DNA from: Fibrobacter sp. UBA7003
GTDB taxonomy: Bacteria; Fibrobacterota; Fibrobacteria; Fibrobacterales; Fibrobacteraceae
Reading direction: 5' to 3' (one strand)
DNA: 64,000 nt
Assembly: GCF_002449765.1 (NCBI RefSeq)
Contig: NZ_DJXN01000008.1
In this document: positions 13,088 to 61,523 of the stretch, piece by piece
Layout: every line of letters begins with the position of its first letter
How positions within the stretch are numbered: the stretch's first letter is position 1
Position numbers and translations under genes: made by a program
The notes under the pieces: generated by a model
Database searches by the model: none
What the model saw: only the letters and a program-made list of their open reading frames with translations
What the model was told of the DNA's origin: nothing

Positions 13088-16000
13088 ATGTTCATGATGT
13101 CGGTGAGGAACGCAATGAAAATCAGGCTTGCTTTTGTAGCCGCATTGTCGCTGCTTGCGGTTTGTTCGTTCGCGGCGAACGGTACCATGAAGGGCGAAGG
13201 TACCATCGAAAGCCCATTCCTGGTCGATGACTACGAAGACCTGAAGATGATAGGCAAGGGTGCCTACCTGTATTCTTCAGCCTATATGCTGACTGCCGAT
13301 ATCGACGCTTCGGCCTCGTATGGCGAATGGTGCAGTGAAGGCGTGTGCAACGGGTTCATTCCCTTGGGACTTGAGAAGGATGCTGCGGACGCTTCCGTTT
13401 TCACGGGCTATTTTTGGGGGCGTGGATTTACGATCAGGAATATGCGCATATGGACGCCCTGTGCGCACAACGTGGGTTTTTTCGCGAACCTGGGTCAGGG
13501 TGGACTGGTCTCACATTTGAACTTTGATTCCCTTGTGGTGTGGGGCGGCCTGGATGATATCTATGCGCCCCATTCGAAATATGTCGGCGCCGTTGCGGGC
13601 ACGGCTACCGGGTATATCCTCGATGTGCACGTTACAAATGGCGAAGTGCAGGGCCGTGAGTATGTGGGCGGTATCGTGGGCGACATGGAAAAGACGACGG
13701 CCAATTTGGATAATGTCTCGTATGAGGGCGTTGTCCGGGGCGGATCCAGTGTAGGGGGGCTGGCCGGAAGATCCCGTGGTACGATTGCCGAAAGCAAGGC
13801 GGATGTCAAGATATATGCGAAGGGAAGCGATATTGGTGGCCTTGTTGGCGAAAATAAAGGAGATATTGAAAAAAGCGAAGCGGCTGGTTTAATCCTCCCC
13901 ATTGCCGGAAGTTCAATCACCGAAGTCGGCGGGCTTGTGGGGTATAACATAAGCGGTGGCTACATCACTTCATCCAGGGCATCTGTGGATATTCTGCCTT
14001 TGACTACTGCGGTTCCCAAAAGCAAATTGGGCGGTCTGATCGGAGCCAACTATGGTTCTATTGAGCAGTCGTATGCTACGGGCAGCGTCACTGGGAGCGA
14101 GTTCGATATTGGCGGCCTGGTCGGTAAGAACTATGATGGGACTATCCGTAATTGCTTTGCTACGGGAGCGGTGAGGGGGAATAGGTATGTAGGCGGACTC
14201 GTTGGCGATGCATCGGGAGCGGTAAGCACGTCGTACTCGGTCGGGCCTGTTGAAATTTTTGATACGACGGAAGTCGAGGAGGTAGGCGGCCTGATCGGTT
14301 CGGGCGAGGCGGACAGCTCCTACTGGAACGTGGAATTTTCCGGATTGGATACAAGCAGCGGCGGGACGGGACTTTCCGATGTCGCCATGAAAAAGTTCGA
14401 AAGCTTTTTCGGATGGGACACCGAAATCTGGACTATCGACGAGGGGGAATCGTACCCCTACCTGGCTGTGTTCGGCAAGAAGCCCGATGCTGTCGTCTAT
14501 GCGATTCCCACGACGGCAGCGAAGTGGCAGGAAAATCCGGTTGTCGCCGCGAAAGACGATACCGGCCGTGAATTGTTCGGCAAATGGACTGGCGCGAACT
14601 ACCTGAATGCGGCGCGCGATTCCATCTACTACGGCTACAAGATTGGCTACGTCAAGGAATCCGATACCGTCTGGAGTACGTCGAGCTACATGGCGGTCCC
14701 GAACCGTATCGAGATTGCGACTCTCGAAGACCTGCAGAAGATTGGCAGGCATGTCGGCTTCCCGCTGTTTGCAAATTACGAGCTGACGGCCGATATCGAT
14801 GCGTCCGGGGTTGATTTCGAACCTATCGGTGACGAGCGTGTCTTGTTTACGGGTAGCTTCGACGGAAAGAACCATACCATCAGTGGATTCAGGATTGATG
14901 GCCGCAAGAAGGATTATTCCGGACTCTTCGGGAAGGCGGAAAAGGCTGTCTTCAGGAACATTGTTTTCAGGAACGCAAATGTCAATGGTAAGAAAATAGT
15001 TGGCGTGCTTGCGGGCCAGATTGACGGGTCGATTGTGAGCAACGTTGTCTCGTATGACGCAACGGTCAATGGCCATAGCAATGTCGGTGGGCTTATCGGT
15101 ATCGCGTTCTCAAACGACATGGAGCGCCTTGCAAGTACGGGCGCCGTCACGGGAGATACCTGTGTCGGAGGTCTTTTCGGGGCGTTCGCGTCGAAGTTGA
15201 CAGATGCCTATTCCGTGAATGTCGTCAAGGGGCATTATTGGGTTGGGGGCGTTATGGGCGGTGCGAATTTGGATTTCCATAATGCCGATACCGTCCTCAA
15301 TGTTTACTCCGCGAGCCTTGTGAAGGGCCCCCGCAAGCGTATCGAGGGAATTGCCGGATCCGTGGAGAATTCCTACTACGACGAGAAGTATGCGGACATA
15401 TACTTCGACAGCACGCTTATGCCTTCCGAATGGCAGGTCGATCGGTACGAGTTGGGTGAAGCGCTCCCGACTGATTCCCTGCTGAAGCGGGCCACGTTCA
15501 AGGGGTTCGACTTTGAGTCCGTGTGGACTATCCAGGAAGGCGTGTCGTATCCTTATTTCAAGGGAATGGACCCCTCGCTTCCGGGAACATTGGTCGATGA
15601 CGGAACGAGCTATGCCCTGGTGGGCGAAGGTACGGCGGAAAAACCGTTCCAGATTACCAGCTACGATGACCTCAAGAATGTCGGCAAGCATGAATTCGGC
15701 CTGGACGCCCATTACGAATTGCAGGGATTTTATGCAAGCGAATCCGCGACGGACAACTGCGTCGACGGCGTGTGTGCCGGTTTTGAACCCATCGGCGGAA
15801 CCGAAGGTTTCAGCGGGACGTTCATCGGACACAGGGACGGCATTTTCAAGCTGACCATCAACCGCCCCGACGAGGATTACGTCGGCTTGTTCACGAAACT
15901 CAATCCCGGTGCCAAGGTTTCGGGAATAGGGTTGGGCGAGAGCACCATTATCGGCAGGAACTATGTGGGTGGTATTGCCGGGCTGGACAAGGGTGCCGAC

Positions 16001-18160: not shown

Positions 18161-18171
18161 GAGAGAGAAAG

Positions 18172-21100
18172 ATGATGAAGTTACGTTTTGTTTTCGCTGC
18201 CGTTCTGTCGCTGCTTGCGATCCATTCGTTCGCGGCGAACGGCACCATGAAGGGTGATGGTTCCGCCGAAAAGCCTTTCCAGATTGAGGATTACGAAGAC
18301 CTGAAGGCGATAGGCAAGGGCACTTACCTCTATTCTTCGAACTACGTGCTGACTGCCGATATCGACGCTTCGGCCTCGGCGCACGAGATGTGCAGTGACG
18401 AGGGCGGCTGCAACGGCTTTATCCCTATCGGCAAGAACAAGGATGCAGCCGACAGCGTGGCGTTTTGGGGAACTATCGACGGCCAGAACCACACGATTCT
18501 CAATTTAACAATCTGGCTACCCTGTGAACAGAATGTGGGCTTTATCTACGCACTTGTCGGTTCTGTCAAGAACTTGAATTTTGACCATCTCCATGTGACG
18601 GGGAGGGTGAGCGAAACCGACCATGTGGGTGGCGTTGTCGCAAGGCTTGTCGGTACGATTGAAAATGTGCATGTGACGAACGGTTTTGTTCAAGGGAAGA
18701 AGCGTGTCGGCGGCATTGTGGGTGCTGCGATGAGGGCTATCGGGTATTCCGGTATGATTCCCGCCTTGAAGGATGTTTCGTTCCAAGGAGAAATCAAGGG
18801 TACGGAACGGGTTGGCGGAATTGTGGGTGAAACAGACGAGGCGACAATCGATAGCGCCGTTGCCGATGTGAATATCATTGCTATGGACGGGCGTGTCGGC
18901 GGTATTGTCGGGTTCAATGACGGGCGTATTACTAACAGCCGTTCCAATGGAACGATTGTCCCGGGAGAATCCGATGTGAATAATGTCGGTGGCATCGCCG
19001 GAGAATCCGAAGGTGATGTTCAAATGTGCGTGTCTACAATGGACTTGGTACGTTACGGCTATGAATTTGATGAAGATATTGGCGGCATTGTTGGCGATAA
19101 CGATAAGGGAACGGTATCCCATTCGTATGCCATCGGAAAGGTAGAAGGAGAACGCTATGTGGGTGGTGTTGTCGGGAGCGGTGGCTTTGTACAGAGTTCG
19201 TTCGCCATGGGCGAGGTGCGCGGAAACAACAAGGTCGGTGGCGTTGCAGGCTCCGGTGCTTCCATTTTCAATTCCTATGCGGCAAACAAGGTCTTGGGCG
19301 ATTCGCTTGTAGGCGGGCTTATTGGATATTCGCCCGATACAATTTTTAGCTCCTACTGGAATACCGAAATTTCGGGACTCGATACGAGTGCAGGCGGCAC
19401 GGGGCTTTCTACCGCGAAGATGATGAAGCTCTCGTCGTTTGCGGGCTGGGACACTCTGGGTTATGATGAGTATGTCGTTGATGGTACGGATACATGCGAA
19501 TACTTTATATATGAAGGCGCTTGCTATTCGCCTACGGGGAACTTTATTCGTTATTGGGACATAGACGAAGGCAAGACTTTCCCGTACCTGGCGAACAACC
19601 CCTATTCGAAAAAGTCGTTTATCCCGATTGCGACTCCGACTGTGGCGGCAAAGTGGCAAGAGCAGCCGCCTGTTGCCTCGCTTACCGAGGTCGATGGCGA
19701 ACTTGTCGGCAAGTGGCTCGGCTGGGTGAATCTGGGCGATAAATATGATACCGTTAGTGGCGATTATACAAGTTTTATATTAAGGAGAGATACGCTCTAT
19801 TATGGCTATAGAATCGGCGTGGTAAACGAAGGCGATACCGTCTGGGGAACGTCGAGCTACGTGGCTGTACCCAACGGGATAAAGATTTCGACACTTGCGG
19901 AACTCCAGAAAATCGGAAACGACATGGCCTACCCGCTGGTGGCAAGTTACGAACTGACTGCCGATATCGATGCTGCCGGGGTCAATTTTAGGCCCATCGG
20001 CGATAGCGTGCATGTGTTCGCGGGAGTCTTCGACGGAAAAAACCATACCATCAAGAACCTGACGATTGTCGACCCGTATCGTGACTTTGCGGGAATGTTC
20101 GGGGTGGCGGATGACGCTGACATCAAGAACCTGAAACTTGAAAACGCGAAAGTCGAAGGGGATTGGTATGTCGGTGCGCTGGCGGGTGAAATCGATAACT
20201 CCCGTGTCACTAACGTTGTCTCCTTGAACGGGAACGTGTCGGGGATGTCGTTTGTCGGCGGATTGATGGGTGCTACCCGCATAAGTGAAATCCATGTGGT
20301 CGGGACTACCGGCTATGTAACGTCGGGCGATATTGTCGGTGGAATTTTTGGCGCTTCCGCTTCGAGGGTTGTAGACGCGTTCTCGGTGAATGTCGTCAAG
20401 GGTTACGAGAACGTGGGTGGCGTTATGGGCATTTCGGATGAGTTTTCATCGGGCACCTTGCAACAGAACATCTATTCTGCGAGTATCCTGAAGGCTCCCG
20501 ACCCGGAAGGAATTATCGGAGGAAACTTCTTCGGGTCGGGCGAACACATCAAATCATGTTATTTCGACAGTACTGTTACAGGAAACGTGTACGGAGGGAA
20601 TACCACCGAAGAAATGTTGAAACAGTCAACATACGAAGGTTTCAACTTCGATACCGTGTGGGCTATCCAGGAAGGCGTTTCTTACCCGTACTTCAAGGGC
20701 ATGGACCCGATATTGCCGGGCACGCTCGAAGACGACGGTACGGTAAATATGCTCGCTGGTACCGGTACCGAAAGGAACCCCTACAAGATTTACGATTACG
20801 ATGACCTCAAGTATATCGGCAAGTACGAATACGGGCTTGACAAGTATTACAAGCTGATGAGCAATATCAATGCCGCGAGTTCGTTCAGGGAGAACTGCAA
20901 TGCCGACAGCACTCTTTGCAAGGGCTTCGAACCGATTGGAGAATTCAGCGGCGTGTTTGACGGGAATAACAAGTTTATTGCGGGCTTGAACATCAACCGC
21001 CCCGACGAGGATTCCGTAGGGCTTTTCCGGGCTCTGGCGGCGGGTGCCAAGGTGAGCGGCGTCGTCTTTGATACGGCTTCGTATCTTGGAAAAGATAATT

Positions 21101-23976
21101 CGTATGGGCCTGCGGATACTAGGGGTGCCATCCATGGCAAGAACTATGTCGGTACCCTCGCCGGTGTCGATAAAGGTGCTACGCTCGAAAAAATCTTTGT
21201 AAAGTATGATGTTTCTGGCGAAAATTACGTAGGCTCCGTTGTCGGTAAGAAATCTTCGGGATCTCTCGCAAAGAGCGCATCCAGGTTCCTCGTTTCGGGA
21301 AACGAAAATGTGGGCGGCCTCGTAGGGCATTTGGGCGCGGCTAGCGTAGCGGATTGCTATTCGATTGCGAATGTCGTGGGTACAAAGAATGTCGGTGGTC
21401 TGTTTGGCTACTCCGACAATGCAACCGTGAAAAACTCCTTTGCCGCAGGCCGTGTAGTGGGGTCTTCTAAATGGGGAGTTGTTGCAGGGGATGCCGACAA
21501 GTCGACTTATACGTCGGTGTATGGCGATAGCTCTCTTTGGTTTGTTAATGTAACGGCTGGTGGGAAACTCCGCACTACGCGGCAGATGGTTACGAAGGAA
21601 AATTACAAGGATTGGGATTTCGTTTCAACTTGGAGCATTGCTGCAGATACAACCTATCCCTATTTGTCTTGGTTTACTTCGGCTTACCGTATATCCAAAA
21701 CAATGAAGGAAAAAGTCTATCCGAATTTGGATGTTGACCAGACGATGCTCAAAATGGCTGGCTCCGGTACTGAGAGCGATCCGTTCCTGATCAAGACATA
21801 CGGTGACTTGAAATCAATCGGGTACGGAAAGTACAAGCTTTCGTCCGTCTATCGTGTGGCTAATGATATCGATGCTTCTGCCTCAAAGACCCAAACCCTT
21901 TTCAGCGGGCGAGGCATTGGATTCAACCCTATTGGCAAGATTGAAATACTCGAAGATTTTTGCAATTGCTATGGTGTTGTTTTGGGCGGATATATACCGC
22001 AGGATACCTCGAGATTGTTTACTGGAAAAATTCACGGCGGCGGTCACAGTATCAGCGACCTTTATATGGACTTCTGGGACAGTGAACCCACGGGGCTTGT
22101 GGATACGATTGCAAAAACAGGTGTAATCGATAGCTTGTCCTTCAAGAGGTATGAGATAAGCAGAGAAGAAGGAAATGTAAATAAAGTTGGCGCCTTGGCC
22201 GGCGTGAACATGGGGACTGTAAGCCATGTTGATATGGATGTCTTGTTCAAGAAAACTTTTGGCGGTGCGGGTCTTGTTTACGATAACAAGGGGCTTATAG
22301 AAAATTGTTCAGTCAAGGGAATTTTTGGCGGGTCATCTTTGGCGGGTATTTCCGTGATAAACGATGGCGATGTCCTCAACGTGAATGTTGATGCTGTCTG
22401 GAGCGATAGCTCGGGACTCGTTGGTGGAATTGCTCTTGTCAACAGGGGACTTATCAAGCTTTCGTCTGCCAAGGTGTCGTTGAATAATGGCCGTGGCCCG
22501 ATTGGTGGAATTGCCGCCATGAATACGGGAACCGGGCGTATAGTCGACGCATCTGTAAATATTGATGCGAAACAGATTATCCAAGAACGCGGCGTGTATT
22601 ATTATGTTGACCACAAAATAAAGGATTACGAATACGAGGATTTTTATATTGATGGAATAGGTGGCCTTGTCGCGATTGATAGCGGGACTATAACGAACTC
22701 TGCTGCAACGGGCGTTATTGACGCGAAGGATGGGGCCTATGTCGGTGGCCTGATCGCTAAAGCTTATAGCAAGGAATTGAAAGGGCTGCATGCGTCTGTC
22801 GATGTTGGGGGCATGTATTGTGTCGGTGGCTTTGTGGGCTTGAACCAGGCGACTATTTCTGAAAGCTATGCTGCCGGAAATGTCAAGGGGAGTGGAAATT
22901 ATTCCTATTCTGGAGCATTTGTCGGCAAGAACGAAGGCGTGATTGAGCGTTCGTTTGCGATGGGGAATGCAAGCGCGGCTGCCGGTTTTGTCGGCGAAAA
23001 TGATGGAACTATCAGGCGGTCCTATTCTACGGGAAATGTAGAGGAGGCTGGCGGTTTTGCCAATATCAATCAGGCTGTAATTGAAGATTGCTATTCGACG
23101 GGCGATGTGTCGGCGAATGAAACGCCATATGGCTTTGGATTTGCCAGTGTCAACGGTAGCGCTACGAAGGTGAGGGGGTATGCTTCCGGAACGGCCGTTA
23201 AGGACGGAAACCGTTTTTGCGTTGACTTGCCCAGAGGGTCGATGCCTTCGGATGAGTTCTACTTCCTTGCCGACGGCTGTATCGATACACTGGCGACGAA
23301 TACCGGACTTTCGCCCTCGGCAATGCGTAAGCAAAAATCCTTCTCCGCGTTCGATTTCGATTCCGTGTGGTACATCAAGGAGGGTGTGAGCTATCCGCTG
23401 CTGCGCGGCATGCCGAACCCGCCGATGCTTGCAGAAGAGAATGCCGTGTACAATAGCAACACCGGGATTGCAAAGAATGTCCGCGCCAAGCTTCTCGAAG
23501 ATGCCTTCGTGATGGATACGGCGGCAACGAAGGTACTCGCGCTGGATTCTGCAAGCGAGGCCCTGCTCGATTCGCTCGAAAATGTCGAGGCGCCGTCTGG
23601 GAAGTTCGAAGTCTCCTACCGCGTGGGCGTTTTGCTCGGTTCCGACACGCTCTGGAGCAAGCCCGCTACGATGCAGCTTGAAATCGAGAAGACGGTCGGG
23701 AACTTCGAAATTGCGGTTGCGTCTGGACTCGGGTTCGGTGCCGCATTCCATGGCCCGCATGTGGCGCTCCGCTTCGAAATTCCTGCCGCGGGCGCCGTGA
23801 AGTTCGCGTTTGTAGACATGCAGGGTCGCGTGGTGCGCTCGTTCAACCTGGGGAGCCGTGCCGCAGGTGCGTATAGCGATGCGCTCGATGCCGGTGCGAT
23901 TGCCCGCGGGCGCTACGTGGGCGTGCTGCAGGTGAACGGCCGCGTCGCCGGAAAGGCGCTTTTGCTAAAAAGGTAG
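18172..23976 (+). CDS. giant secreted GLUG-motif repeat protein, tandem paralogue of 13088..18160, with a T9SS-type C-terminal domain
   Basis: 1934 aa. The N-terminal 70 aa and C-terminal 90 aa are near-identical to the upstream gene, with the same module grammar. SD GGAGAG before the ATG. Confidence 0.8.
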   Translation: MMKLRFVFAAVLSLLAIHSFAANGTMKGDGSAEKPFQIEDYEDLKAIGKGTYLYSSNYVLTADIDASASAHEMCSDEGGCNGFIPIGKNKDAADSVAFWGTIDGQNHTILNLTIWLPCEQNVGFIYALVGSVKNLNFDHLHVTGRVSETDHVGGVVARLVGTIENVHVTNGFVQGKKRVGGIVGAAMRAIGYSGMIPALKDVSFQGEIKGTERVGGIVGETDEATIDSAVADVNIIAMDGRVGGIVGFNDGRITNSRSNGTIVPGESDVNNVGGIAGESEGDVQMCVSTMDLVRYGYEFDEDIGGIVGDNDKGTVSHSYAIGKVEGERYVGGVVGSGGFVQSSFAMGEVRGNNKVGGVAGSGASIFNSYAANKVLGDSLVGGLIGYSPDTIFSSYWNTEISGLDTSAGGTGLSTAKMMKLSSFAGWDTLGYDEYVVDGTDTCEYFIYEGACYSPTGNFIRYWDIDEGKTFPYLANNPYSKKSFIPIATPTVAAKWQEQPPVASLTEVDGELVGKWLGWVNLGDKYDTVSGDYTSFILRRDTLYYGYRIGVVNEGDTVWGTSSYVAVPNGIKISTLAELQKIGNDMAYPLVASYELTADIDAAGVNFRPIGDSVHVFAGVFDGKNHTIKNLTIVDPYRDFAGMFGVADDADIKNLKLENAKVEGDWYVGALAGEIDNSRVTNVVSLNGNVSGMSFVGGLMGATRISEIHVVGTTGYVTSGDIVGGIFGASASRVVDAFSVNVVKGYENVGGVMGISDEFSSGTLQQNIYSASILKAPDPEGIIGGNFFGSGEHIKSCYFDSTVTGNVYGGNTTEEMLKQSTYEGFNFDTVWAIQEGVSYPYFKGMDPILPGTLEDDGTVNMLAGTGTERNPYKIYDYDDLKYIGKYEYGLDKYYKLMSNINAASSFRENCNADSTLCKGFEPIGEFSGVFDGNNKFIAGLNINRPDEDSVGLFRALAAGAKVSGVVFDTASYLGKDNSYGPADTRGAIHGKNYVGTLAGVDKGATLEKIFVKYDVSGENYVGSVVGKKSSGSLAKSASRFLVSGNENVGGLVGHLGAASVADCYSIANVVGTKNVGGLFGYSDNATVKNSFAAGRVVGSSKWGVVAGDADKSTYTSVYGDSSLWFVNVTAGGKLRTTRQMVTKENYKDWDFVSTWSIAADTTYPYLSWFTSAYRISKTMKEKVYPNLDVDQTMLKMAGSGTESDPFLIKTYGDLKSIGYGKYKLSSVYRVANDIDASASKTQTLFSGRGIGFNPIGKIEILEDFCNCYGVVLGGYIPQDTSRLFTGKIHGGGHSISDLYMDFWDSEPTGLVDTIAKTGVIDSLSFKRYEISREEGNVNKVGALAGVNMGTVSHVDMDVLFKKTFGGAGLVYDNKGLIENCSVKGIFGGSSLAGISVINDGDVLNVNVDAVWSDSSGLVGGIALVNRGLIKLSSAKVSLNNGRGPIGGIAAMNTGTGRIVDASVNIDAKQIIQERGVYYYVDHKIKDYEYEDFYIDGIGGLVAIDSGTITNSAATGVIDAKDGAYVGGLIAKAYSKELKGLHASVDVGGMYCVGGFVGLNQATISESYAAGNVKGSGNYSYSGAFVGKNEGVIERSFAMGNASAAAGFVGENDGTIRRSYSTGNVEEAGGFANINQAVIEDCYSTGDVSANETPYGFGFASVNGSATKVRGYASGTAVKDGNRFCVDLPRGSMPSDEFYFLADGCIDTLATNTGLSPSAMRKQKSFSAFDFDSVWYIKEGVSYPLLRGMPNPPMLAEENAVYNSNTGIAKNVRAKLLEDAFVMDTAATKVLALDSASEALLDSLENVEAPSGKFEVSYRVGVLLGSDTLWSKPATMQLEIEKTVGNFEIAVASGLGFGAAFHGPHVALRFEIPAAGAVKFAFVDMQGRVVRSFNLGSRAAGAYSDALDAGAIARGRYVGVLQVNGRVAGKALLLKR

Positions 23977-23979
23977 CCC

Positions 23980-24696
23980 ATGACCCATGCCGAACTCCTA
24001 AAGCGACTGCAGGCCGAACAGGATTTGAAGTACCGCGACTTTCATGCGTCGCTGTTGCCGAACATCGACAAGAAATCGATTATCGGCGTGCGGGTGCCTA
24101 CCATGCGAAAGATTGCGAAGGAGTTCGCGGCGGCCGATGTCGCCAAGTTTTTGGACAAACTGCCGCACAAGTACTTTGAAGAAAACCAGGTTCACCTCTT
24201 CGTGGTCGAACGCATTAAGGATGCGGACGAGTGCCTGTACCGCATCGAACAGTTCCTGCCCTACATCGACAACTGGGCGGTATGCGATGGCAAATCGCCA
24301 AAGGCATTGCTCAAGGACGAAAAGCGGTTCGTGTCGTGCATCGAAAAATGGCTCAAGTCAAAGCACCCTTACACGGTTCGCTTCGGCGTGAACATGCTCA
24401 TGACGTTCTTTTTGGACGTGCGATTCGACAAGAAGTTTTTGAAGTGGGTCGCGGCTATTGATGAATCTCTGTTTAATGACGACGGCCGCGCGGAATGCCC
24501 CACCGACCGCTACTACGTGCAGATGGTCGTCGCCTGGTATTTCGCGACCGCGCTTGCCAAGCAGTGGGATGCGACGTTCCCCTACATCGAGGGCCGAAAG
24601 CTTTCGCCGTGGATTCACGCGAAGTCCATCCAGAAGGCGTGCGAAAGCTACCGCATTACCGATGCGCAGAAGGCTATCTTGCGTCGCCTGAAGTAA
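23980..24696 (+). CDS. DNA alkylation repair protein (AlkD-like HEAT-repeat family)
   Basis: 238 aa. The pattern YRDFHASLLP ... IIGVRVPTMRKIAKEF ... NWAVCDG is typical of the DNA_alkylation family. Confidence 0.7.
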   Translation: MTHAELLKRLQAEQDLKYRDFHASLLPNIDKKSIIGVRVPTMRKIAKEFAAADVAKFLDKLPHKYFEENQVHLFVVERIKDADECLYRIEQFLPYIDNWAVCDGKSPKALLKDEKRFVSCIEKWLKSKHPYTVRFGVNMLMTFFLDVRFDKKFLKWVAAIDESLFNDDGRAECPTDRYYVQMVVAWYFATALAKQWDATFPYIEGRKLSPWIHAKSIQKACESYRITDAQKAILRRLK

Positions 24697-37240: not shown

Positions 37241-38224
37241 ATGGATATTCAGGAACTTTCGGAAAAGGTGCGCCAGCAGAGTGCTTTTTGCATGAATTTG
37301 CTGCGTGAAGTGGAAGGGACGGTGATTGGCCAGAAGGCTCTGGTCGAAAGCATTCTGACGGGTATTTTGGCGGACGGTCACGTGCTGCTGGAAGGCTTGC
37401 CGGGCCTTGCCAAGACGACTGCGGTGAAGGCTTTTGCCGATGCTGTGTCGCTGGACTTCAAGCGCATCCAGTTCACTCCCGACCTGTTGCCGGCCGACTT
37501 GCTGGGTACCACGATTTACAACGCGAAGGAAGCGAAGTTCGAAACCCGTAAGGGCCCGCTCTTCACGAACCTCGTGCTCGCCGATGAAATTAACCGTGCT
37601 CCGTCGAAGGTGCAGAGCGCCCTCCTCGAAGCCATGCAGGAACGCCACATCACGATTGGCGACGAGACGTTCAAGCTGGACGAGCCGTTCCTGGTGCTTG
37701 CCACGCAGAACCCCATCGAGCAGGAAGGTACGTATCCGCTGCCCGAAGCCCAGGTGGACCGTTTCCTGTTGAAGGTGAAGGTCAGCTACCCGAACAAGGC
37801 CGACGAAATGAAGATTCTCGACGCCGTTGCCGGTGCGGGGCTGCGCCAGCCGCAGGCTGTCGCCACGAAGGAAGATATCCTTGCCGCCCGCCAGCTCGTG
37901 AAGCAGGTGTACGTGGACGAACGCGTGCGCGAATACATCGTGAACCTGGTGCTTGCGACCCGCGATCCGGGCAGCATCAAGCGCAGCGACCTGGTGGGCT
38001 TTGTGGAAGTGGGCGCCTCGCCGCGTGCATCCATCGGCCTTGCCCAGGCTTCGAAGGCTCATGCGTTCATCCAGGGCCGCGCCTACGTGACGCCGGAAGA
38101 TGTGAAGGCCGTCGCGATGGAAGTGCTCCGCCACCGCATTATCCTCAGTTACGAGGCCGAAGCGGAAGAAGTCTCCGCCGAGACTGTGGTGCAGAAGATT
38201 CTGGATTCTGTTGAGGTTCCGTAG
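37241..38224 (+). CDS. moxR: MoxR-family AAA+ ATPase
   Basis: Starts at MDIQELSEKV. GQKALVESILTGILADGHVLLEGLPGLAKT, LADEINRA, LATQNP and a RASI...A C-terminal block. 327 aa. Confidence 0.9.
   Translation: MDIQELSEKVRQQSAFCMNLLREVEGTVIGQKALVESILTGILADGHVLLEGLPGLAKTTAVKAFADAVSLDFKRIQFTPDLLPADLLGTTIYNAKEAKFETRKGPLFTNLVLADEINRAPSKVQSALLEAMQERHITIGDETFKLDEPFLVLATQNPIEQEGTYPLPEAQVDRFLLKVKVSYPNKADEMKILDAVAGAGLRQPQAVATKEDILAARQLVKQVYVDERVREYIVNLVLATRDPGSIKRSDLVGFVEVGASPRASIGLAQASKAHAFIQGRAYVTPEDVKAVAMEVLRHRIILSYEAEAEEVSAETVVQKILDSVEVP
38106..38224 (+). repeat. copy 1 of a 119-bp diverged direct repeat (functional 3' end of moxR)
   Basis: Aligns without gaps to 40589-40707. The first 38 nt are identical, with about 16 mismatches overall. 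Nearly all mismatches are synonymous, and the encoded peptides differ at one residue (V/F). Confidence 0.85.
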
Positions 38225-38278
38225 TCGCGGCCATCTCTAACCGACATTGTTATCTCGCACTCGTTGCGGGATCTCCAC

Positions 38279-38914
38279 TTACATAAGCCGGGCCTTGAGC
38301 TCGGCTTTCACTTTTTTGAGGTCGCCGCTGGTGAGAATGGGAATGAGACTGTTGATTTCGTCGATGGGCTTGTCCCACCACTTGAACTTGAGCAGAAGTG
38401 CGGTGAGTTCGTCGTCGAATCGCTTGCGGATGAGTTTGGCAGGGTTCCCTGCCACGATGGTGTAGGGCTCCACGTCGCTTGCTACGACGGAGTTTGCCCC
38501 GATGATGGTACCGTCGCCGATGTGAACGCCTGGGAGAATCGTCACATTCTGCCCGATCCACACGTCGTTCCCGATGACGGTATCGCCTTTGAACGGCATA
38601 TCTTCGCGGGCGGGCGGTGCCATGTCCCAGCCCTGCAGCGTGTAGAACGGGAAGGTGGAAACCGCATTCATCTGGTGGTTCGCCCCGTTCATGACGAATT
38701 CCACGCCGGAGGCAATTTGGCAAAATTTGCCGATGATGAGTTTGTCTCCAATGAAGTTGTAATGGTGCGTCACGTGGCTCTCGAAATCCGAATCGGCAAT
38801 GTAGGTGAAATCGCCCACGATTATATTCGCTCTCTTGAGCGTCGGCTTCACGTAGATTTCCTTGTCGTAGCCCGCGATGGGGTGGATTGTATTCGGGTCG
38901 GGTCTTGTTATCAT
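38279..38914 (-). CDS. vat: Vat-family streptogramin A O-acetyltransferase (xenobiotic hexapeptide acyltransferase)
   Basis: From MITRPDPNTIHPI. DKLIIGKFCQIASGVEFVMNGANHQMNAVSTFPF, KGDTVIGNDVWIGQNVTILPGVHIGDG and KWWDKPIDEI are collinear with VatD blocks (GKFCSIGPG ... NGANHRMDGSTYPF ... KGDTIIGNDVWIG ... KWWNWPID). Confidence 0.85.
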   Translation of the reverse strand: MITRPDPNTIHPIAGYDKEIYVKPTLKRANIIVGDFTYIADSDFESHVTHHYNFIGDKLIIGKFCQIASGVEFVMNGANHQMNAVSTFPFYTLQGWDMAPPAREDMPFKGDTVIGNDVWIGQNVTILPGVHIGDGTIIGANSVVASDVEPYTIVAGNPAKLIRKRFDDELTALLLKFKWWDKPIDEINSLIPILTSGDLKKVKAELKARLM

Positions 38915-38980
38915 AGCGGGAAACCTTTTGCTAAACGTCACTTTTCTTTTTTGCGGTTTTTCAAGCACGTCTTTTGCTTT

Positions 38981-39262
38981 TTATGGGCGTGTTTCGTCAT
39001 GGGCAGATGAAATTGTAATAATGTCATCGAAACAGCAATCCTCTTCGTTGACTTCGCATGCGCAGCCACACATGCCAGATAATTTTGGGATGATGAATTC
39101 TCCCTTGCTCCACCGGGTGTATAGGGAATCGTCTATCGTCTGGATTTTCTTTTGCAGGGAAGGATCCGACGATATGTCGCATTTGAATCTGCCAAAATGC
39201 AGTGCAGGCTCGGCATTTATGAAGCATGCCAGAAAGAGGATTGTTTTCAGCACCGATTTCAT
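38981..39262 (-). CDS. small secreted Cys-rich hypothetical protein
   Basis: 93 aa with a signal peptide (ILFLACFINAEP) and 7 Cys, including the cluster GMCGCACEVNEEDCC. Lies between the 292-aa gene and vat on the same strand. Confidence 0.4.
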   Translation of the reverse strand: MKSVLKTILFLACFINAEPALHFGRFKCDISSDPSLQKKIQTIDDSLYTRWSKGEFIIPKLSGMCGCACEVNEEDCCFDDIITISSAHDETRP

Positions 39263-39280
39263 CTCAAGAAGAATAATAGT

Positions 39281-40096
39281 TTAATTCTGTTGGCGGTGGG
39301 CGTCCTGTTCGAAAATCGTCTTGATGTATGCCTGCACCTGCTTGACGGAGAGAGGGGTGTTGCCGCTTTCGAAGGTGGCGATGAAGTTCTTGCCGAGGAT
39401 GTAGCCGCTGGCGGCGTATCGGGAGATTTTCTGCACGGCGTTTTCGGTGTAGTCGGGGTCGCCCATCAGGCCGAAGTGCTCCCAGATGATTTCTTCGCGG
39501 GAGCTGGTGCGCAGGCAGGTGAAATCGGGGTAGAGCGTACCCCAGCCTTTGACGCTGGTAGGGTATTCGTAGCGGAAGGGGATGCCTGCGCGATTGAGCG
39601 CGTCTGCGATGATGACTTCGGATTTTGAGCGGACGCGCACGCCCGTGCTCGTGAAGAATTCGGGTGCGTTGATTTCGAAGGGCTTGCCGGTGTAGGGGAG
39701 GTGCTGCCATGCAGCGATGAAATCCTCGTCGGGCTCGCGCACGGGCGTCACAAGGGGGCGGCGGCCGGGGTGTAGCCCCGTGAACGCGGTGTCGATTTCT
39801 TCGGGATGGTAATTCTCCGTCAGGTTGTTGAGTGCGATGATTTGCCTGCCGATGATGCCTGCGACAGCCGCGTTGTAATCGCGTTGCGCGATTGCCGCCG
39901 CCCTGCGTCGTTCCTTGCGGGGGAGGTATTTTCCGTTAGAGTTGCTGCCCTTGTCTACGAGATAGTATTGCGACCGGTCATGGTTGGTTATGACTCGCAA
40001 TCTTCCTGTGGGTTGCTTTCCCTTGGGGAGTTTAGCCTTCAGTGCGATCAGTTGCTGAATCCGCTCGTTGGCGATTTGAATGAGTTGGTCTGCCAT
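39281..40096 (-). CDS. hypothetical protein with a C-terminal PD-(D/E)xK-like (restriction-endonuclease fold) motif arrangement
   Basis: ATG at 40096 with a purine-rich stretch upstream (alternative TTG at 40159). VRSKSEVIIADALNRAGIPFRYEYP ... LYPDFTC ... IIWEHFG resembles the S-x-x-E / PDF / h-E-x-x-G layout of TnsA, Vsr and DUF559-type nucleases. Confidence 0.5.
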   Translation of the reverse strand: MADQLIQIANERIQQLIALKAKLPKGKQPTGRLRVITNHDRSQYYLVDKGSNSNGKYLPRKERRRAAAIAQRDYNAAVAGIIGRQIIALNNLTENYHPEEIDTAFTGLHPGRRPLVTPVREPDEDFIAAWQHLPYTGKPFEINAPEFFTSTGVRVRSKSEVIIADALNRAGIPFRYEYPTSVKGWGTLYPDFTCLRTSSREEIIWEHFGLMGDPDYTENAVQKISRYAASGYILGKNFIATFESGNTPLSVKQVQAYIKTIFEQDAHRQQN

Positions 40097-40269
40097 TTCC
40101 GTTCCCTTTTTCTGTGAAACAAAAAAGCGCTGATACGCCGTTTTAACGGACGATATCAACGCTTATGTGTCCCTAATATACAAAGTGTGTGGCAAAAAAA
40201 CAAGTTGATGCTTTAGGCGGCAGTTGGATAGCATTTTTTTTGACTTTTGAACGTCTGTTTTGCGGGGGC

Positions 40270-40508
40270 TTACATACCAAAGACGTAAATAGTGGTGGTT
40301 GGTATGTAAAAAAGGTTGCGAAAGAGCGAAAAGTGTCCCAAATGGGGTCGCGGATGACGAAATTAGGGCGATTTTTGCTTAGTTTGTCTGTGTTTTGGCT
40401 ATTTTTTACATACTAAAACATTGCTTCGGGAAAATAGGTATGTAAGGTCTGTGAATGCTGGTTGCGGATTGCATACTAATTGAACTTTTTTGGTGTTTTA
40501 GTATGTAA
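40270..40508. repeat. three 40-bp units, each with 11-bp inverted arms (consensus TTACATAC[CT]AA) around an 18-bp non-conserved spacer
   Basis: Unit 1 is 40270-40280 / 40299-40309, unit 2 is 40406-40416 / 40435-40445, and unit 3 is 40469-40479 / 40498-40508. The spacer is exactly 18 nt in all three. Confidence 0.8.
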
Positions 40509-40588
40509 ATAGATGCGTTTTCCCCGCTCCTAGACGACTTCTCTGAGGTTCGCGGGCGTTATTTTGCAACCTATAGGCGGTTTTCCGC

Positions 40589-40707
40589 AGGCCGTCGCGA
40601 TGGAAGTGCTCCGCCACCGCATTATCTTAAGCTACGAGGCCGAAGCGGAAGAAGTCTCCGCCGAAACCTTCGTGCAGAAGATTCTCGACAGCGTCGAAGT
40701 GCCGTAA
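40589..40707 (+). pseudogene. orphan 3' fragment of moxR (copy 2 of the 119-bp repeat)
   Basis: Encodes AVAMEVLRHRIILSYEAEAEEVSAETFVQKILDSVEVP-stop with no upstream moxR body. Homology starts abruptly at 40589. Confidence 0.8.
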
Positions 40708-57392: not shown

Positions 57393-57426
57393 CCTAGGCT
57401 CAAACGAGCCTAGGCTTTCTTATTTC
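57393..57426. terminator. hairpin between convergent PL1 and KilA-N genes, also the approximate left edge of the low-GC island
   Basis: CCTAGGCTC (57393-57401), loop AAAC, GAGCCTAGG (57406-57414), then CTTTCTTATTT. Overlaps the KilA-N stop. Confidence 0.5.
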
Positions 57427-58229
57427 AAAAGCTTGTTCTCTCCGATAGATTCCAGTACTGTCATCTGCGAAATCGCAATCTGGTTCAGCTTTTGCAATCG
57501 TTCTGGCTGCGGCAAGCCTTCCTTGATCAGGACGGAATTCAGCGATTCCATATTCGAAAGGCATATAAGCTGGTTTACCGTCGCATAGTCGCGGACATTG
57601 CCCTGCAAATCGGCGTGTGCATCGCGCCATTCCTTAGCCGTAAATCCGAATAAAGCAACATTTAGAACATCGGCTTCGTTTGCGTAAACCATGCTCATCT
57701 GTTGCTTTGTAAGTGTTGCCGGAATCAAATTCTGCTTGATGGCGTCCGTATGGATATGGTAGTTGATTTTTGAGAGTTCACGACGTAGTGACCATCCTAA
57801 TTGAGCTTGTTCCGCAGCCTTGAGGCGTTGGAACTCCTTAACCAAGTACAATTCGAATTCGACAGAAACCCAACTTGCAAATTTGACGGCGATATCATAT
57901 TGTGCGAATGTCCCGCCGTTAACACCATTTTTAGAAATGAGTCCAATTGCACCAGTTTCTTCAATCCATCGAGAAGGGCTCATAGTGAACGAATGGCTAC
58001 CAGCTTCTTTTAAAAAGGGGTCGAATTCGACCCCTTTGAAGTCGGGATTGTTCAACATTTCCCATAAACCTAAGTATTCTATTGTATTTTTTGACCTCAT
58101 CCAATTTTTCACAACATCCTTAGGCTCCACAGGATTCTTTTGCCGAGCAATATCAGTAATGCAGACATAATCGACGCCGTTAACGAGCATTGTTTTGATT
58201 TCACGGTTCATGACGTTTATTCGTTTCAT
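57420..58229 (-). CDS. KilA-N domain-containing DNA-binding protein
   Basis: 269 aa. VNGVDYVCITDIAR ... NWMRSKNTIEYLGLWE ... GGTFAQYDIAVKFASWVSVEFELYL is the typical KilA-N pattern. Confidence 0.8.
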   Translation of the reverse strand: MKRINVMNREIKTMLVNGVDYVCITDIARQKNPVEPKDVVKNWMRSKNTIEYLGLWEMLNNPDFKGVEFDPFLKEAGSHSFTMSPSRWIEETGAIGLISKNGVNGGTFAQYDIAVKFASWVSVEFELYLVKEFQRLKAAEQAQLGWSLRRELSKINYHIHTDAIKQNLIPATLTKQQMSMVYANEADVLNVALFGFTAKEWRDAHADLQGNVRDYATVNQLICLSNMESLNSVLIKEGLPQPERLQKLNQIAISQMTVLESIGENKLLK

Positions 58230-58443: not shown

Positions 58444-59097
58444 ATGGAACAGAATCAGAAAACTATTAGAGTTATGGGGACGGGCTTTGTCAAAATCTCT
58501 CCGGACACCACGAGACTCACTTTTTCTATAGATTCCAAGCACGATTCCTATGAAAAGGCATATAACGAGGCCTCCCTAGGTAACAAAGGTTTGAGGGATG
58601 CTCTTGAAAAGCTGAATATTCCGAAGGAATCTCTTAAGACATCAGATTTCTCGATAAGTAAACATCGGGAATGGATTAGCAAGGAAGTCCGGTGGCTTGT
58701 CGAATATCATTTGAATCAAAGTCTCTCTATTGAGTTGCCTTTGGATAGTGTTCTTACATCAAAGGTTATGTCGACTTTGGGAGCCGCGTGGCCTGAACTC
58801 GAAGTGAACATATCTTTTATCAGGAAAGATTCTCACGATGTCAAGCTTCAAATTCTCGAATCGGCAGTCAAGGATGCCCGCGAAAAAGCCGAGGTGATCG
58901 CCATGACGCTTGGACATAAGCTAGGCGGTATCGTAAGTGTCGATTACTCCAGACGTAGCATTGACGTTTATGTTGGTCGGGAAGATTATAACATGGTGGC
59001 TGATTTAGCAGAAAGTTCCGGCTCGCAATCTGTTGATTATACCCCTGATGATATTGAAGCAGGAGATACTGTTGAAACAGTCTGGTATTTGGATTAG
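58444..59097 (+). CDS. SIMPL (DUF541) domain protein without a signal peptide
   Basis: ATG 5 nt after GGAGG. IRVMGTGFVKISPDTTRLTFSI ... AYNEAS ... AVKDAREKAEVIA follows the SIMPL pattern. Confidence 0.65.
   Translation: MEQNQKTIRVMGTGFVKISPDTTRLTFSIDSKHDSYEKAYNEASLGNKGLRDALEKLNIPKESLKTSDFSISKHREWISKEVRWLVEYHLNQSLSIELPLDSVLTSKVMSTLGAAWPELEVNISFIRKDSHDVKLQILESAVKDAREKAEVIAMTLGHKLGGIVSVDYSRRSIDVYVGREDYNMVADLAESSGSQSVDYTPDDIEAGDTVETVWYLD
59070..59097 (+). repeat. 28-bp perfect direct repeat, copy 1 (last codons plus stop of the SIMPL gene)
   Basis: TGTTGAAACAGTCTGGTATTTGGATTAG is identical to 59500-59527. Confidence 0.95.
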
Positions 59098-59149
59098 ACA
59101 AAATAGAGGATTGATTTTATTGTTGATAAAATCAATAAGGCAACAATAT

Positions 59150-59449
59150 TCAATCTATGATGATGCCTTTTGTAAACATTTTGTCGCGATGCTTGAAGTA
59201 TTTGTCAAGTTCTTTTTCGACTGCTTTGAAAAATTTTTTCGCATTCGGGTCTACATGCAGTAGCATACTAGCTAAATCACGCATCCAATTAAAGCGCACC
59301 ATCGAATCTGCGGTGTCGAAAAAATCGCGTGTAATATGTTCTCTAGTCGATTTATGCTCCTTCAAAAGTTCATCAATGGCTTCGTCATCGCCAAAATCGT
59401 ATATGGTCTTTTCTCCCAAATTAGAGAAATCTGTACTGATGAGTTTCAT
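59150..59449 (-). CDS. small acidic hypothetical protein (single-gene cassette between the 28-bp repeats)
   Basis: 99-aa ORF on the opposite strand to its neighbours. An AT-rich hairpin at 59110-59136 lies downstream of both converging genes. Confidence 0.5.
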   Translation of the reverse strand: MKLISTDFSNLGEKTIYDFGDDEAIDELLKEHKSTREHITRDFFDTADSMVRFNWMRDLASMLLHVDPNAKKFFKAVEKELDKYFKHRDKMFTKGIIID

Positions 59450-59499
59450 AAAATAACACCTTTCCTCCCTAATATACCACTTTTTTTATAGAAAGTCAA

Positions 59500-59527
59500 T
59501 GTTGAAACAGTCTGGTATTTGGATTAG
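59500..59527 (+). repeat. 28-bp perfect direct repeat, copy 2
   Basis: Identical to 59070-59097. Flanking bases differ on both sides. Confidence 0.95.
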
Positions 59528-59576
59528 TATATTACTGAATTTGCGTTCTTTCCTATTTTTGCAGTAAGGGCGCCTT

Positions 59577-60008
59577 ATGTCAGATCGGAACATCATAAAT
59601 CTTAAATTGTCGATGCGGGCAAGTCAAAAGAGCAGAATTATAGCCATAGTGGCGGCAGTCCTGCTTATTGCTGTGCTGTTTGTAGAAAATTTCTGCCTTG
59701 ATTTCGATTGTGTGTATATGGGAGTTTCAATCTTTGTGTTTGTCGGAATATCTTATGTTCTCCGTTTCTTCTCTGATATTTTTACAGACATGTTTGCTGG
59801 TCTGTTGGCGGCTTCGCTAGGTGCATTTGCAGAGGCTATAATAATATCTATCGCCATCAATTCGATTTTCGACTGTAAATTCGATAAAAACTTTGGAACG
59901 CTATTTTTCTTTTGCTACTGTTTGTGCTTATTGTTTATGGTCATTATGCTCATGTGGAAAGAAAGACGCAAAGAAGAACGGAAAAATACTAGCGTCGATA
60001 ACGGTTAA
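59577..60008 (+). CDS. small four-helix membrane protein, function unknown
   Basis: 143 aa with four hydrophobic segments and a basic C-terminal tail (KERRKEERK). Ends 15 nt before the next ATG. Confidence 0.55.
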   Translation: MSDRNIINLKLSMRASQKSRIIAIVAAVLLIAVLFVENFCLDFDCVYMGVSIFVFVGISYVLRFFSDIFTDMFAGLLAASLGAFAEAIIISIAINSIFDCKFDKNFGTLFFFCYCLCLLFMVIMLMWKERRKEERKNTSVDNG

Positions 60009-60023: not shown

Positions 60024-61523
60024 ATGGACAAACGATACATTAATAGATTTGGAGATTTCTATCGCCATAGGGCATCCCTAGTTTGGTGCATGGGCTCTTT
60101 GGCATATTGCTTTGAGAAAAAAAAGGAATTGCTTAGCGTTCCTGAAAATCTTTGGTCAGCCATTCTTTATCAGATTTCAGATTGTGTCATTGATTTGTAT
60201 CAGTTCGATTTGGCAATGGAAGAACGCATCAATAATATGGAACGATACTTTAACGATGGCCGAGATGTTGTTAATGATCTTGTTCAGAATGACTCGGAAC
60301 TTAAGGTTAAAACAGATGCGCTATACGAATATTTGTGGAATGTAAGAGGGTTTACATATGAAATTATAGATTTACACGGAATCCCTTATACAGATAGGCT
60401 CTCCACAGAAGAACAAGTAGAATTTGAAAATACTTTTTGGAAAAAGGCAACCCCAAAATTCAAGAAAGCCCATAAGGCCTATCGTGATTTGCTCGCGATA
60501 ATGGATGATCGGGTTTACAAGATAAGGAAAAGTCTTGTAAAAGACAAAGTCCCTATATCCTTGCCGCATACGCCGGAAAGTGCCATGTTGCCCGAAGAAA
60601 AGGCTTTTTACCACCAGGCCAAGGCGATTTGGGATAAGGAAGAATACATTGATATCGAAGAAAATGTAAACTACCTGTGGGTTTATGTTCAGGAACTTCT
60701 TGCCAAAAGACAATCGGCGACATTCGAGTTCTTAAAAGGGATTCTCATGCGTCTTTGCGAACGCTACTATACGGAGGAAACGTTCTTCATATCGTGTGGG
60801 CCTTATATTGAGGATTTGGCCCTTGAACGTGGTGATGTCAAGTGCTATTTGGACTGGTCAGAAATGCAACGTGTCTATGGACATTGTTCATTAGAAAGTG
60901 AATCGCGGGTGGGTGTCGCCATGCGCGAAAATATTCCGCTCCATCCGATGGATATCATAATGGCTACGGGTGGTTATTATTCCAAGTTCATTCGCGATAA
61001 CTATGCCCTATACAAGTTCTGCCTTTATCAAAAGTTCTCTGAATATGACAATGCGAAGGGCTGGTATAATCTACTCAAGAAACTTCCGAAGGCAGGACAT
61101 ATAAATGCGGTTCAGTGCTATTTGGGCTTGCCTGGTGTCGTATGCGAGTCGAAAGTTTACAATCTGTTTGACGCTTCGGCGGAGCCTGTCTGTAAAACAA
61201 TAGTTTCTGTTTGCCAAGATGCCGAAAAGATGGCTATTGAAATGAAATCAAACGGTGACTCATGGGAAATAGAGCGTCACGAGCGGATATTTGAGTACTT
61301 AAAGGGATATCTTCCTCAGTTAAAGATGTTCCTAGAAGCAAGGCCGCTGTTTGCGAATGGTGAAGTTATTCCCATCTACATTCCTTATAGGGATATAGCG
61401 ATTTGCCGTGCCGGTGTGGAATCTAAATGCGATGCGGCCGAGATCCAAAGACGGAATATCCGGTTTGTGAACATCGATTCTGAACCCAATCAGGTTGTCG
61501 AAGAAATAAAAAGTCTCTTGTAG
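60024..61523 (+). CDS. 499-aa protein of unknown function (weak TerB-N-like and endonuclease-fold-like hints)
   Basis: Long AT-rich ORF with coding periodicity. Segment EKAFYHQAKAIWDKEEYIDIEENVNYLWVYVQELL and C-terminal segment IPIYIPYRDIAICRAG ... RRNIRFVNID. No confident family. Confidence 0.6.
   Translation: MDKRYINRFGDFYRHRASLVWCMGSLAYCFEKKKELLSVPENLWSAILYQISDCVIDLYQFDLAMEERINNMERYFNDGRDVVNDLVQNDSELKVKTDALYEYLWNVRGFTYEIIDLHGIPYTDRLSTEEQVEFENTFWKKATPKFKKAHKAYRDLLAIMDDRVYKIRKSLVKDKVPISLPHTPESAMLPEEKAFYHQAKAIWDKEEYIDIEENVNYLWVYVQELLAKRQSATFEFLKGILMRLCERYYTEETFFISCGPYIEDLALERGDVKCYLDWSEMQRVYGHCSLESESRVGVAMRENIPLHPMDIIMATGGYYSKFIRDNYALYKFCLYQKFSEYDNAKGWYNLLKKLPKAGHINAVQCYLGLPGVVCESKVYNLFDASAEPVCKTIVSVCQDAEKMAIEMKSNGDSWEIERHERIFEYLKGYLPQLKMFLEARPLFANGEVIPIYIPYRDIAICRAGVESKCDAAEIQRRNIRFVNIDSEPNQVVEEIKSLL

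Follow-up and report, generated by a model that had tools for sequence, protein, structure and literature searches.

A one-gene cassette related to a phage moron slot, flanked by a 28-bp duplication of a SIMPL gene end, is present or absent among Fibrobacter strains

Phage morons are said to be independent promoter-gene-terminator units placed between phage genes, a concept attributed to Hendrix and Juhala, and we know of no moron that is flanked by repeats. Homology-facilitated illegitimate recombination (HFIR), in which a homologous anchor in a conserved gene is combined with a non-homologous join, was reportedly described by de Vries and Wackernagel. The term is used in PMC6382021 and PMC8116780. 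Other described systems do carry repeats: cis-mobilizable elements (CIMEs) keep both attL and attR and have lost their integrase (PMC5704250), and in T4-type phages the PeSL (promoter early stem-loop) cassettes hold ORFan genes between repeated promoter/stem-loop modules, by which they are shuffled or lost through recombination (Arbiol et al. 2010, PMC2839356). A search of the literature for repeats flanking morons, or for cassettes or phages of Fibrobacter, returned nothing specific. The locus described here lies in a 64-kb window (the whole stretch of DNA that was analysed, from contig NZ_DJXN01000008.1 of Fibrobacter sp. UBA7003), which comes from Fibrobacter of ruminant or gut samples, and it consists of a 402-bp cassette body with one 99-aa gene, set between two exact copies of the last 28 bp of a SIMPL (DUF541) gene. 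The movement of single accessory genes between phages and chromosomes is poorly understood, and this locus is a clean natural case, since both alleles and their exact junctions are available and the path of the promoter-gene module can be followed from a variable slot in Mu-like phages to defence-type islands of chromosomes. On balance, and with only slightly more than even confidence, we read the SIMPL unit as acting like a phage moron that was captured by the chromosome, fixed in an island by illegitimate recombination and left to segregate through repeat-mediated loss.

The repeated 28-mer, TGTTGAAACAGTCTGGTATTTGGATTAG, occurs in two exact copies on the plus strand of the window, at 59070-59097 and 59500-59527. 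No third copy was found in the 64 kb with up to 3 mismatches allowed, 100 shuffles gave 0 matches, and an exact pair of this length would be expected by chance about 1e-8 times in 64 kb (a rough calculation of our own), which agrees with an earlier note, made from the sequence alone, that had judged the pair implausible as a chance event. The same note had placed the perfect direct repeat at the SIMPL 3' end with these coordinates, had described the 402 bp between the copies as holding a single 99-aa open reading frame (ORF) on the opposite strand together with an AT-rich hairpin, and had regarded the sequence outside the 28-mer as unrelated. Each of these descriptions stands. The arrangement recurs in 20 independently assembled contigs and is thus not an assembly artefact, and the bases next to the two copies differ on the left (GAGATAC versus AAGTCAA) as well as on the right (ACAAAAT versus TATATTA).

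The SIMPL gene (58444-59097, plus strand, 217 aa; PF04402, E 1.3e-31) has as its final 28 bases the first copy of the repeat (direct repeat 1, DR1; 59070-59097, plus strand, an exact match), which comprises the last nine codons and the TAG stop; the C-terminal codons (T)VETVWYL(D/E)* are kept in distant SIMPL homologues. The cassette body (59098-59499, minus strand, 402 bp, GC 35%) contains a promoter, a ribosome-binding site, the 99-aa gene and a 3' untranslated region (UTR) with a hairpin, and it is absent from the one genome with an empty site and from the empty-allele contigs described below. The 99-aa gene (59150-59449, minus strand) is the sole ORF between the repeat copies. Upstream of it, the promoter and ribosome-binding site (59459-59499, minus strand) are formed by a -35 element TTGACT (59499-59494), a 17-nt spacer, TGG-TATATT (59479-59471) and AGGGAGGAAAGG (59470-59459). 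The AT-rich hairpin (59110-59136, no strand assigned) has perfect 11-bp arms and a 5-nt loop, lies between the convergent SIMPL and 99-aa genes and folds as RNA at -10.2 kcal/mol (z -2.9); it was not called as a terminator, having neither a G+C stem nor a T run, and it is possibly a weak bidirectional terminator. The second repeat copy (DR2; 59500-59527, plus strand) repeats the SIMPL 3' end as a non-coding orphan and matches at 28/28 positions in 20/20 occupied loci. Beyond it follow, on the plus strand, a gene for a 143-aa membrane protein (59577-60008), which stands directly 3' of SIMPL in the empty allele, and a gene for a 499-aa protein without a family (60024-61523).

The cassette is a true presence/absence polymorphism in gut and rumen Fibrobacter. 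The allele data from public runs refer to assembled contigs, from which rare variants are dropped by assembly. The occupied form, with the same cassette and the same 430-bp spacing, was found in 20 independent contigs. When one genome per species was scanned for the 28-mer (185,579 species genomes), a single contig matched, that of a Fibrobacter metagenome-assembled genome (MAG; L001), and this contig carries the exact empty site, the SIMPL stop being followed by TATATTACTG / TATATTACTGAATTTGCG. Both alleles occur together within each of three metagenome or metatranscriptome runs (X8, X11 and X28). The assembly graph of the sheep-gut run X8 branches exactly at the repeat, with a 462-bp cassette unitig at a depth of 11.8, a 32-bp empty-junction unitig at a depth of 11 and flank unitigs that are common to both alleles. 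The corresponding depths in X11 are 4.2 for the cassette and 4.3 for the empty junction, while in the metatranscriptome X28 a 1166-nt RNA contig jumps from 59069 to 59500 and a cassette contig was found too. The isolate-like run X5, at 117x, has the occupied form alone. The empty site that the earlier note had expected in relatives is therefore on record in L001 and as empty junctions in three runs, and these same four sources contradict the outcome which that note had set against a mobile cassette, namely that all relatives would carry the duplicated arrangement without an empty site.

Comparison of the flanks bears on the age of the insertion. Relative to the window, the occupied locus L025 has 14/827 differences in the left flank and 70/922 in the right, the occupied locus L047 has 1/827 and 46/927, and the empty locus L001 has 11/827 and 8/927, so that flank diversity among occupied loci is greater than the distance between L001 and the window. 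In X28 the right flank of the empty allele is diverged in the manner of L025 and L047, with 41 differences in 552 bases, and the empty allele of X8 has a left-flank unitig in common with the occupied allele, with single-nucleotide polymorphisms that are missing from L001; in all, the empty allele stands on at least three flank haplotypes. In L066-68 DR1 and DR2 agree at 27/28 positions, owing to one synonymous change in DR1 (ACA to ACT) with DR2 unchanged, which indicates that no process keeps the two copies identical. This lineage, whose SIMPL protein is only 87% identical, still keeps the cassette in place. The flank diversity of the occupied loci and the persistence of the cassette in this lineage argue that the insertion is old and probably happened once, and the empty state has come about, or been passed on by transfer, on repeated occasions. 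It is established bacterial genetics that replication slippage or RecA-dependent recombination can precisely delete the sequence between short direct repeats; this is enough to account for the empty alleles, and homologous recombination in the flanks can spread either the occupied or the empty state.

The relatives of the cassette lead to phages. In Mu-like prophages a homologue of the 99-aa gene lies on the opposite strand between Mu_F-like and tail_S-like genes. This position is a variable one-gene, opposite-strand slot in Mu-like Fibrobacter prophages (L012-L015, L027, L031-32, L044-46 and L054-L057). Its contents differ among related phages under one conserved leftward promoter, and include the 99-aa family, a DUF7675-like gene and others. 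The window promoter, TTGACTTTCTATAAAAAAAGTGGTATATTAG, matches the promoter of phage L027, TTGACTTTGAACAAAAAAAGTGGTATATTAG, and the homology between the window and L027 begins at the -35 element, the first base beyond DR2; between the SIMPL end and the phage flanks there is no homology, merely chance matches of 11-12 nt. Chromosomal copies in L016 and L036 retain the Mu_F 3' end and the first bases of the tail_S-like gene, and these remnants of phage neighbours argue that the gene passed from phages to chromosomes, leaving ragged ends that differ from copy to copy. Sequence comparison thus points to a phage-to-chromosome transfer of the module, and the 430-bp unit (the 402-bp body plus one 28-mer) would be a one-gene transcription module of phage origin, derived from a moron but not itself placed in a phage. 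Like a phage moron, it is self-contained and has a sigma-70-like promoter of its own, its homologues lie on the opposite strand between Mu-like structural genes, the slot is variable and the gene is probably accessory. Unlike a moron, it sits in a chromosomal island, between the two copies of a duplicated 28-bp host sequence, whereas the phage copies have no repeats.

Homologues of the 99-aa protein fall into 56 clusters at 60-97% identity, all the named ones being from Fibrobacter, and the family was seen only in Fibrobacter and its Mu-like phages. Besides the SIMPL locus, at least six contexts of its homologues were seen, all without the 28-mer: apart from the prophage slot, a homologue adjoins a KilA-N gene within arrays of small modules, another lies between a DUF7675 gene and a RelB/YafQ pair in a toxin-antitoxin island, and further contexts exist. 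No local target duplication was found around the homologues in these other contexts, and neither the exact cassette ends nor the hairpin was found in viral contigs. Since the cassette homologues elsewhere do not carry the 28-mer, the repeat derives from the target and not from the cassette. A search for the gene elsewhere, proposed in the earlier note, thus yielded homologues in several unrelated contexts, and the expectation that the same 28-mer might accompany them failed, as the 28-mer is confined to the SIMPL locus. The AlphaFold2 (AF2) model of the protein is confidently helical (predicted local distance difference test score, pLDDT, 91), with no fold match in PDB or BFVD; a PDB sequence search gave no match, and Pfam, PHROGs and PADLOC gave nothing usable beyond a weak PF08780 match in 2/19 homologues. 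At the SIMPL locus three mosaic forms of the gene were seen, whose flanks, promoter and repeats are identical (the window as compared with L047-L051 and with L074), and the substitutions are clustered, at codons roughly 10-70 in the L047 type and at 59207-59315 in L074. This pattern of substitutions indicates gene conversion from paralogous copies. The patchy gene conversion, the phage origin and the neighbours of the family (KilA-N/PDC-S22, restriction-modification and toxin-antitoxin genes) suggest a testable role in conflict between phage and host.

The gene is expressed, as metatranscriptome contigs cover the 99-aa ORF. Their ends, at 59447 and 59454, fall just within the transcription start predicted near 59464, which is consistent with transcription from the cassette's own promoter, a sigma-70-like site with 10/12 matches and a TG before the -10 element, combined with the ribosome-binding site AGGGAGG. 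A second promoter-like site, TTGAAA-17-TAGTAT (59502-59530, plus strand, 9/12 matches), lies nearly all within DR2 and faces the 143-aa and 499-aa genes. It is made up of DR2 and the next three bases, and at DR1 the corresponding -10 element is destroyed (TAGACA). This site may drive the two downstream genes. In the empty allele of X28 one RNA contig joins SIMPL to the 143-aa gene. Runs X25 and X26 have no RNA contig over 59455-60084. The insertion may uncouple the 143-aa and 499-aa genes from SIMPL transcription. An insertion without duplication would probably have cut either the SIMPL C-terminus or the DR2 promoter-like site, and the case shows how an insertion can be tolerated at a tight gene junction, where the duplication keeps both the upstream C-terminus and the downstream promoter-like site.

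A larger insertion in the same window gives a precedent for the duplicated gene end. Two copies of the final 118 nt of moxR, 87% identical, lie at 38106-38223 and 40589-40706 on either side of a 2.4-kb insert (38224-40588) that holds a hexapeptide acetyltransferase gene and two genes without a family; one gene of the insert encodes 292 aa. The collection contains the identical MoxR protein in 863 blocks, and the sequence downstream of its gene was highly variable in the eight contigs examined. As a side observation, moxR is a conserved anchor with hypervariable neighbours. The moxR 3' end circulates as two synonymous variants, both of which were found in other strains: the functional moxR end of the window is variant A, as in L065, where it is likewise followed by a hexapeptide acetyltransferase gene, and the orphan copy is variant B, as in L060. 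In L060 and L061 the site is empty, with moxR directly followed by a gene for an FGE-sulfatase. Since the two copies are diverged, they did not come from a staggered cut; they came from a donor segment that had its homologous anchor in moxR and was joined 118 nt before the stop of the recipient. This shows that orphan 3' ends arise in the window by recombination between diverged alleles, and the view of the earlier note that the SIMPL cassette has the same topology as the moxR insertion is borne out.

With somewhat better than even odds in our judgement, the SIMPL cassette reflects an illegitimate, not a site-specific, capture of a moron module at the SIMPL stop, followed by repeat-mediated loss. 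The module would have entered the low-GC, defence-type island once, at the SIMPL stop, duplicating the final 28 bp. A homologous crossover inside SIMPL would have brought in a donor segment of the form "SIMPL 3' end plus convergent cassette", and a non-homologous join 28 nt before the recipient SIMPL stop would have completed the event, which together amount to HFIR. The process is favoured for the 28-bp duplication because the moxR orphan end formed in this way in the same window. The likeness to HFIR is that a homologous anchor in a conserved gene and a non-homologous join explain how a duplicated gene end comes to stand beside foreign DNA, the outcome that moxR displays; unlike at moxR, the SIMPL copies are identical, so that donor and recipient copies cannot be told apart. 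Alternatively, a fragment might have been captured at a break staggered by 28 nt, and filling-in of the ends would then have made the duplication. Once formed, it may have persisted because copy 1 keeps the SIMPL C-terminus and stop and copy 2 keeps the -35 element and spacer of the downstream promoter-like site. Replication slippage or RecA-mediated recombination would then act on the two 28-mers and delete the cassette precisely, exchange of flanking DNA by homologous recombination would move either allele between strains, the two together yielding the presence/absence polymorphism, and the 99-aa gene would be patched by gene conversion from paralogous copies.

Several points weigh against illegitimate capture followed by repeat-mediated loss. 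The two junctions lack visible microhomology, the usual outcome of HFIR as described is a loss of recipient sequence and not its duplication, and neither the donor arrangement (SIMPL then the cassette without DR2) nor, in phage flanks and viral contigs, a source of the hairpin-bearing 3' UTR was found. An integrase making a staggered cut would also leave an exact 28-bp duplication. Active excision could explain equally well why empty alleles stand on several haplotypes and reach a frequency of about 50%; rare excision products or circles would escape detection in assembled contigs, and a recombinase might act in trans from elsewhere in the genome. The earlier note had seen a cassette insertion into the 3' end of a gene, which the empty site and the occupied loci support, and had offered two ways for it to happen. 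Its microhomology-mediated alternative survives in part, in that a microhomology-mediated or illegitimate insertion fits better than a site-specific one, the weak part being the absence of microhomology just mentioned.

The other alternative of that note, in which the 28-mer is the core of a site-specific system, corresponds to an explanation that we regard as unlikely, namely that the 28-mers represent the attL and attR sites of a CIME-like miniature element without an integrase, which is excised from and reintegrated at the SIMPL 3' end by a tyrosine or serine recombinase encoded elsewhere. Integrative elements are classically recognised by identical direct repeats of which one restores the 3' end of the target, the empty site is on record in exact form, and the alleles coexist in three runs on several haplotypes. 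The likeness to a CIME (PMC5704250) accordingly extends to direct repeats at both ends with one completing the target gene, to the exact empty site and to the want of an internal integrase. No integrase, transposase or recombinase occurs among the called genes within 10 kb on either side, as judged on a 211-kb contig matching the window, and there is no tRNA gene in the window. Unlike the att sites of a CIME, the SIMPL repeat is not carried elsewhere with the cassette: the 28-mer was found at no other locus among the species genomes scanned, and the relatives of the cassette in phages and islands do not have it, which implies that the original element had no attP-like copy. No full-size element related to it was seen, nor an integrase that would match. 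The body is a single gene in only 402 bp, with no arm-type repeats, no inverted repeats around the core and no terminal inverted repeats; the 20 loci have neither other cargo nor tandem accretion; the isolate-like 117x assembly shows the occupied form alone; and the copies drift, as the 27/28 match in L066-68 shows. A comparison with integron cassettes gives a similarly divided picture. The SIMPL unit is like them in having one small gene per unit and in varying by presence or absence between strains, and unlike them in having its own promoter, no attC-like imperfect palindrome with GTTRRRY cores, no intI nearby and flanks that are direct repeats of the target.

A true long target-site duplication has a decidedly low probability in our estimate. 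In that case a trans-acting enzyme would have made cuts 28 nt apart on the two strands and inserted the 402-bp fragment, in the manner of Cas1-family integrases or casposases. The duplication is exact and has clean ends without microhomology, and 28 bp lies within the range of CRISPR-repeat duplications; IS1634-type transposases leave long duplications too. The same organism carries arrays of phage-derived modules split by a 34-nt hairpin repeat, and the same machinery might build the 34-nt-repeat arrays of related genomes. Against a staggered cut stand the lack of terminal inverted repeats or conserved ends in the cassette, the other copies of the gene family, which have no target duplication, and the size of the 402-bp insert, which is far beyond what known Cas1-Cas2 complexes integrate. 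The genes called in the 10 kb to the left and to the right include no cas1 and no transposase gene. The unit also differs from a transposon or a miniature inverted-repeat transposable element (MITE) in that no inverted repeat links the cassette ends and in that the other insertions are without target duplication. A 21-bp repeat around the homologue in L016-type loci was considered as a second target duplication and rejected, being part of the 34-nt motif, which recurs 4-6 times per locus, and not a piece of the target. Still more speculative, and in our view a long shot, is a dedicated Fibrobacter machinery that captures gene-sized modules from Mu-like phages and duplicates roughly 20-35 bp at the insertion point. 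If it existed, the 34-nt arrays would be its regular products and the SIMPL cassette an off-site event, and the process would be integron-like or a gene-sized analogue of CRISPR adaptation. Finally, an old fixed duplication without mobility, or an assembly artefact, is scarcely credible: the same 430-bp spacing and cassette in 20/20 occupied loci would suit fixation, but the empty alleles in one MAG and three runs refute it, and the many independent assemblies, the 117x coverage of the isolate-like run and the occurrence of the gene family in many unrelated contexts speak against it as well.

The 34-nt motif, TCTTATAGGGGCTCTTTatGAGCcGAGGTAAAAC, has a conserved 4-5-bp stem and, always on the same strand, separates small modules in related Fibrobacter genomes. 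Arrays were seen in L016 (motif positions 1215, 1599, 2267 and 2687), L018 (5 copies), L036 (134-1610, 6 copies), L052 (201 and 561) and a 38.6-kb contig of X5, so that the X5 organism, which has a window-type SIMPL locus, also carries such an array. Many of the array modules derive from the phage moron slot, in either orientation, and in run X38 array variants that lack one or two units coexist, with junctions at the 34-nt motifs. The arrays with 99-aa homologues resemble PeSL cassettes, from which the SIMPL locus differs in that its repeat is a piece of a host gene and not a regulatory module, and is present in two copies only. The arrays had no relevant Rfam match, no recombinase was seen with them, and the motif is absent from the window. 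A kinship between the 28-mer and the 34-nt motif (CAGTCT in common, 10/20 positions) was judged to be chance, as about 0.3 common hexamers would be expected on a rough estimate. The 34-nt-repeat arrays may deserve a study of their own.

The SIMPL locus belongs to a low-GC island. At about 57.4 kb the GC content drops from 55-60% to 37-47%, and the gene order from there is KilA-N, SIMPL, the cassette, the 143-aa membrane protein, the 499-aa protein and an MmeI/type ISP-like restriction-modification gene. The KilA-N gene (57420-58229, minus strand) matches the PADLOC candidate defence family PDC-S22 (E 5e-126), and the restriction-modification gene runs on the plus strand from 61889 to beyond the end of the window. 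This low-GC stretch resembles a defence island, and its content varies from strain to strain; L047 and L066 have type I HsdR or other genes there. Elsewhere in the window, at 13115-24000, several direct repeats of 40-220 nt with 73-85% identity recur at a spacing of about 5.0-5.8 kb and indicate two or three large tandem paralogous genes.

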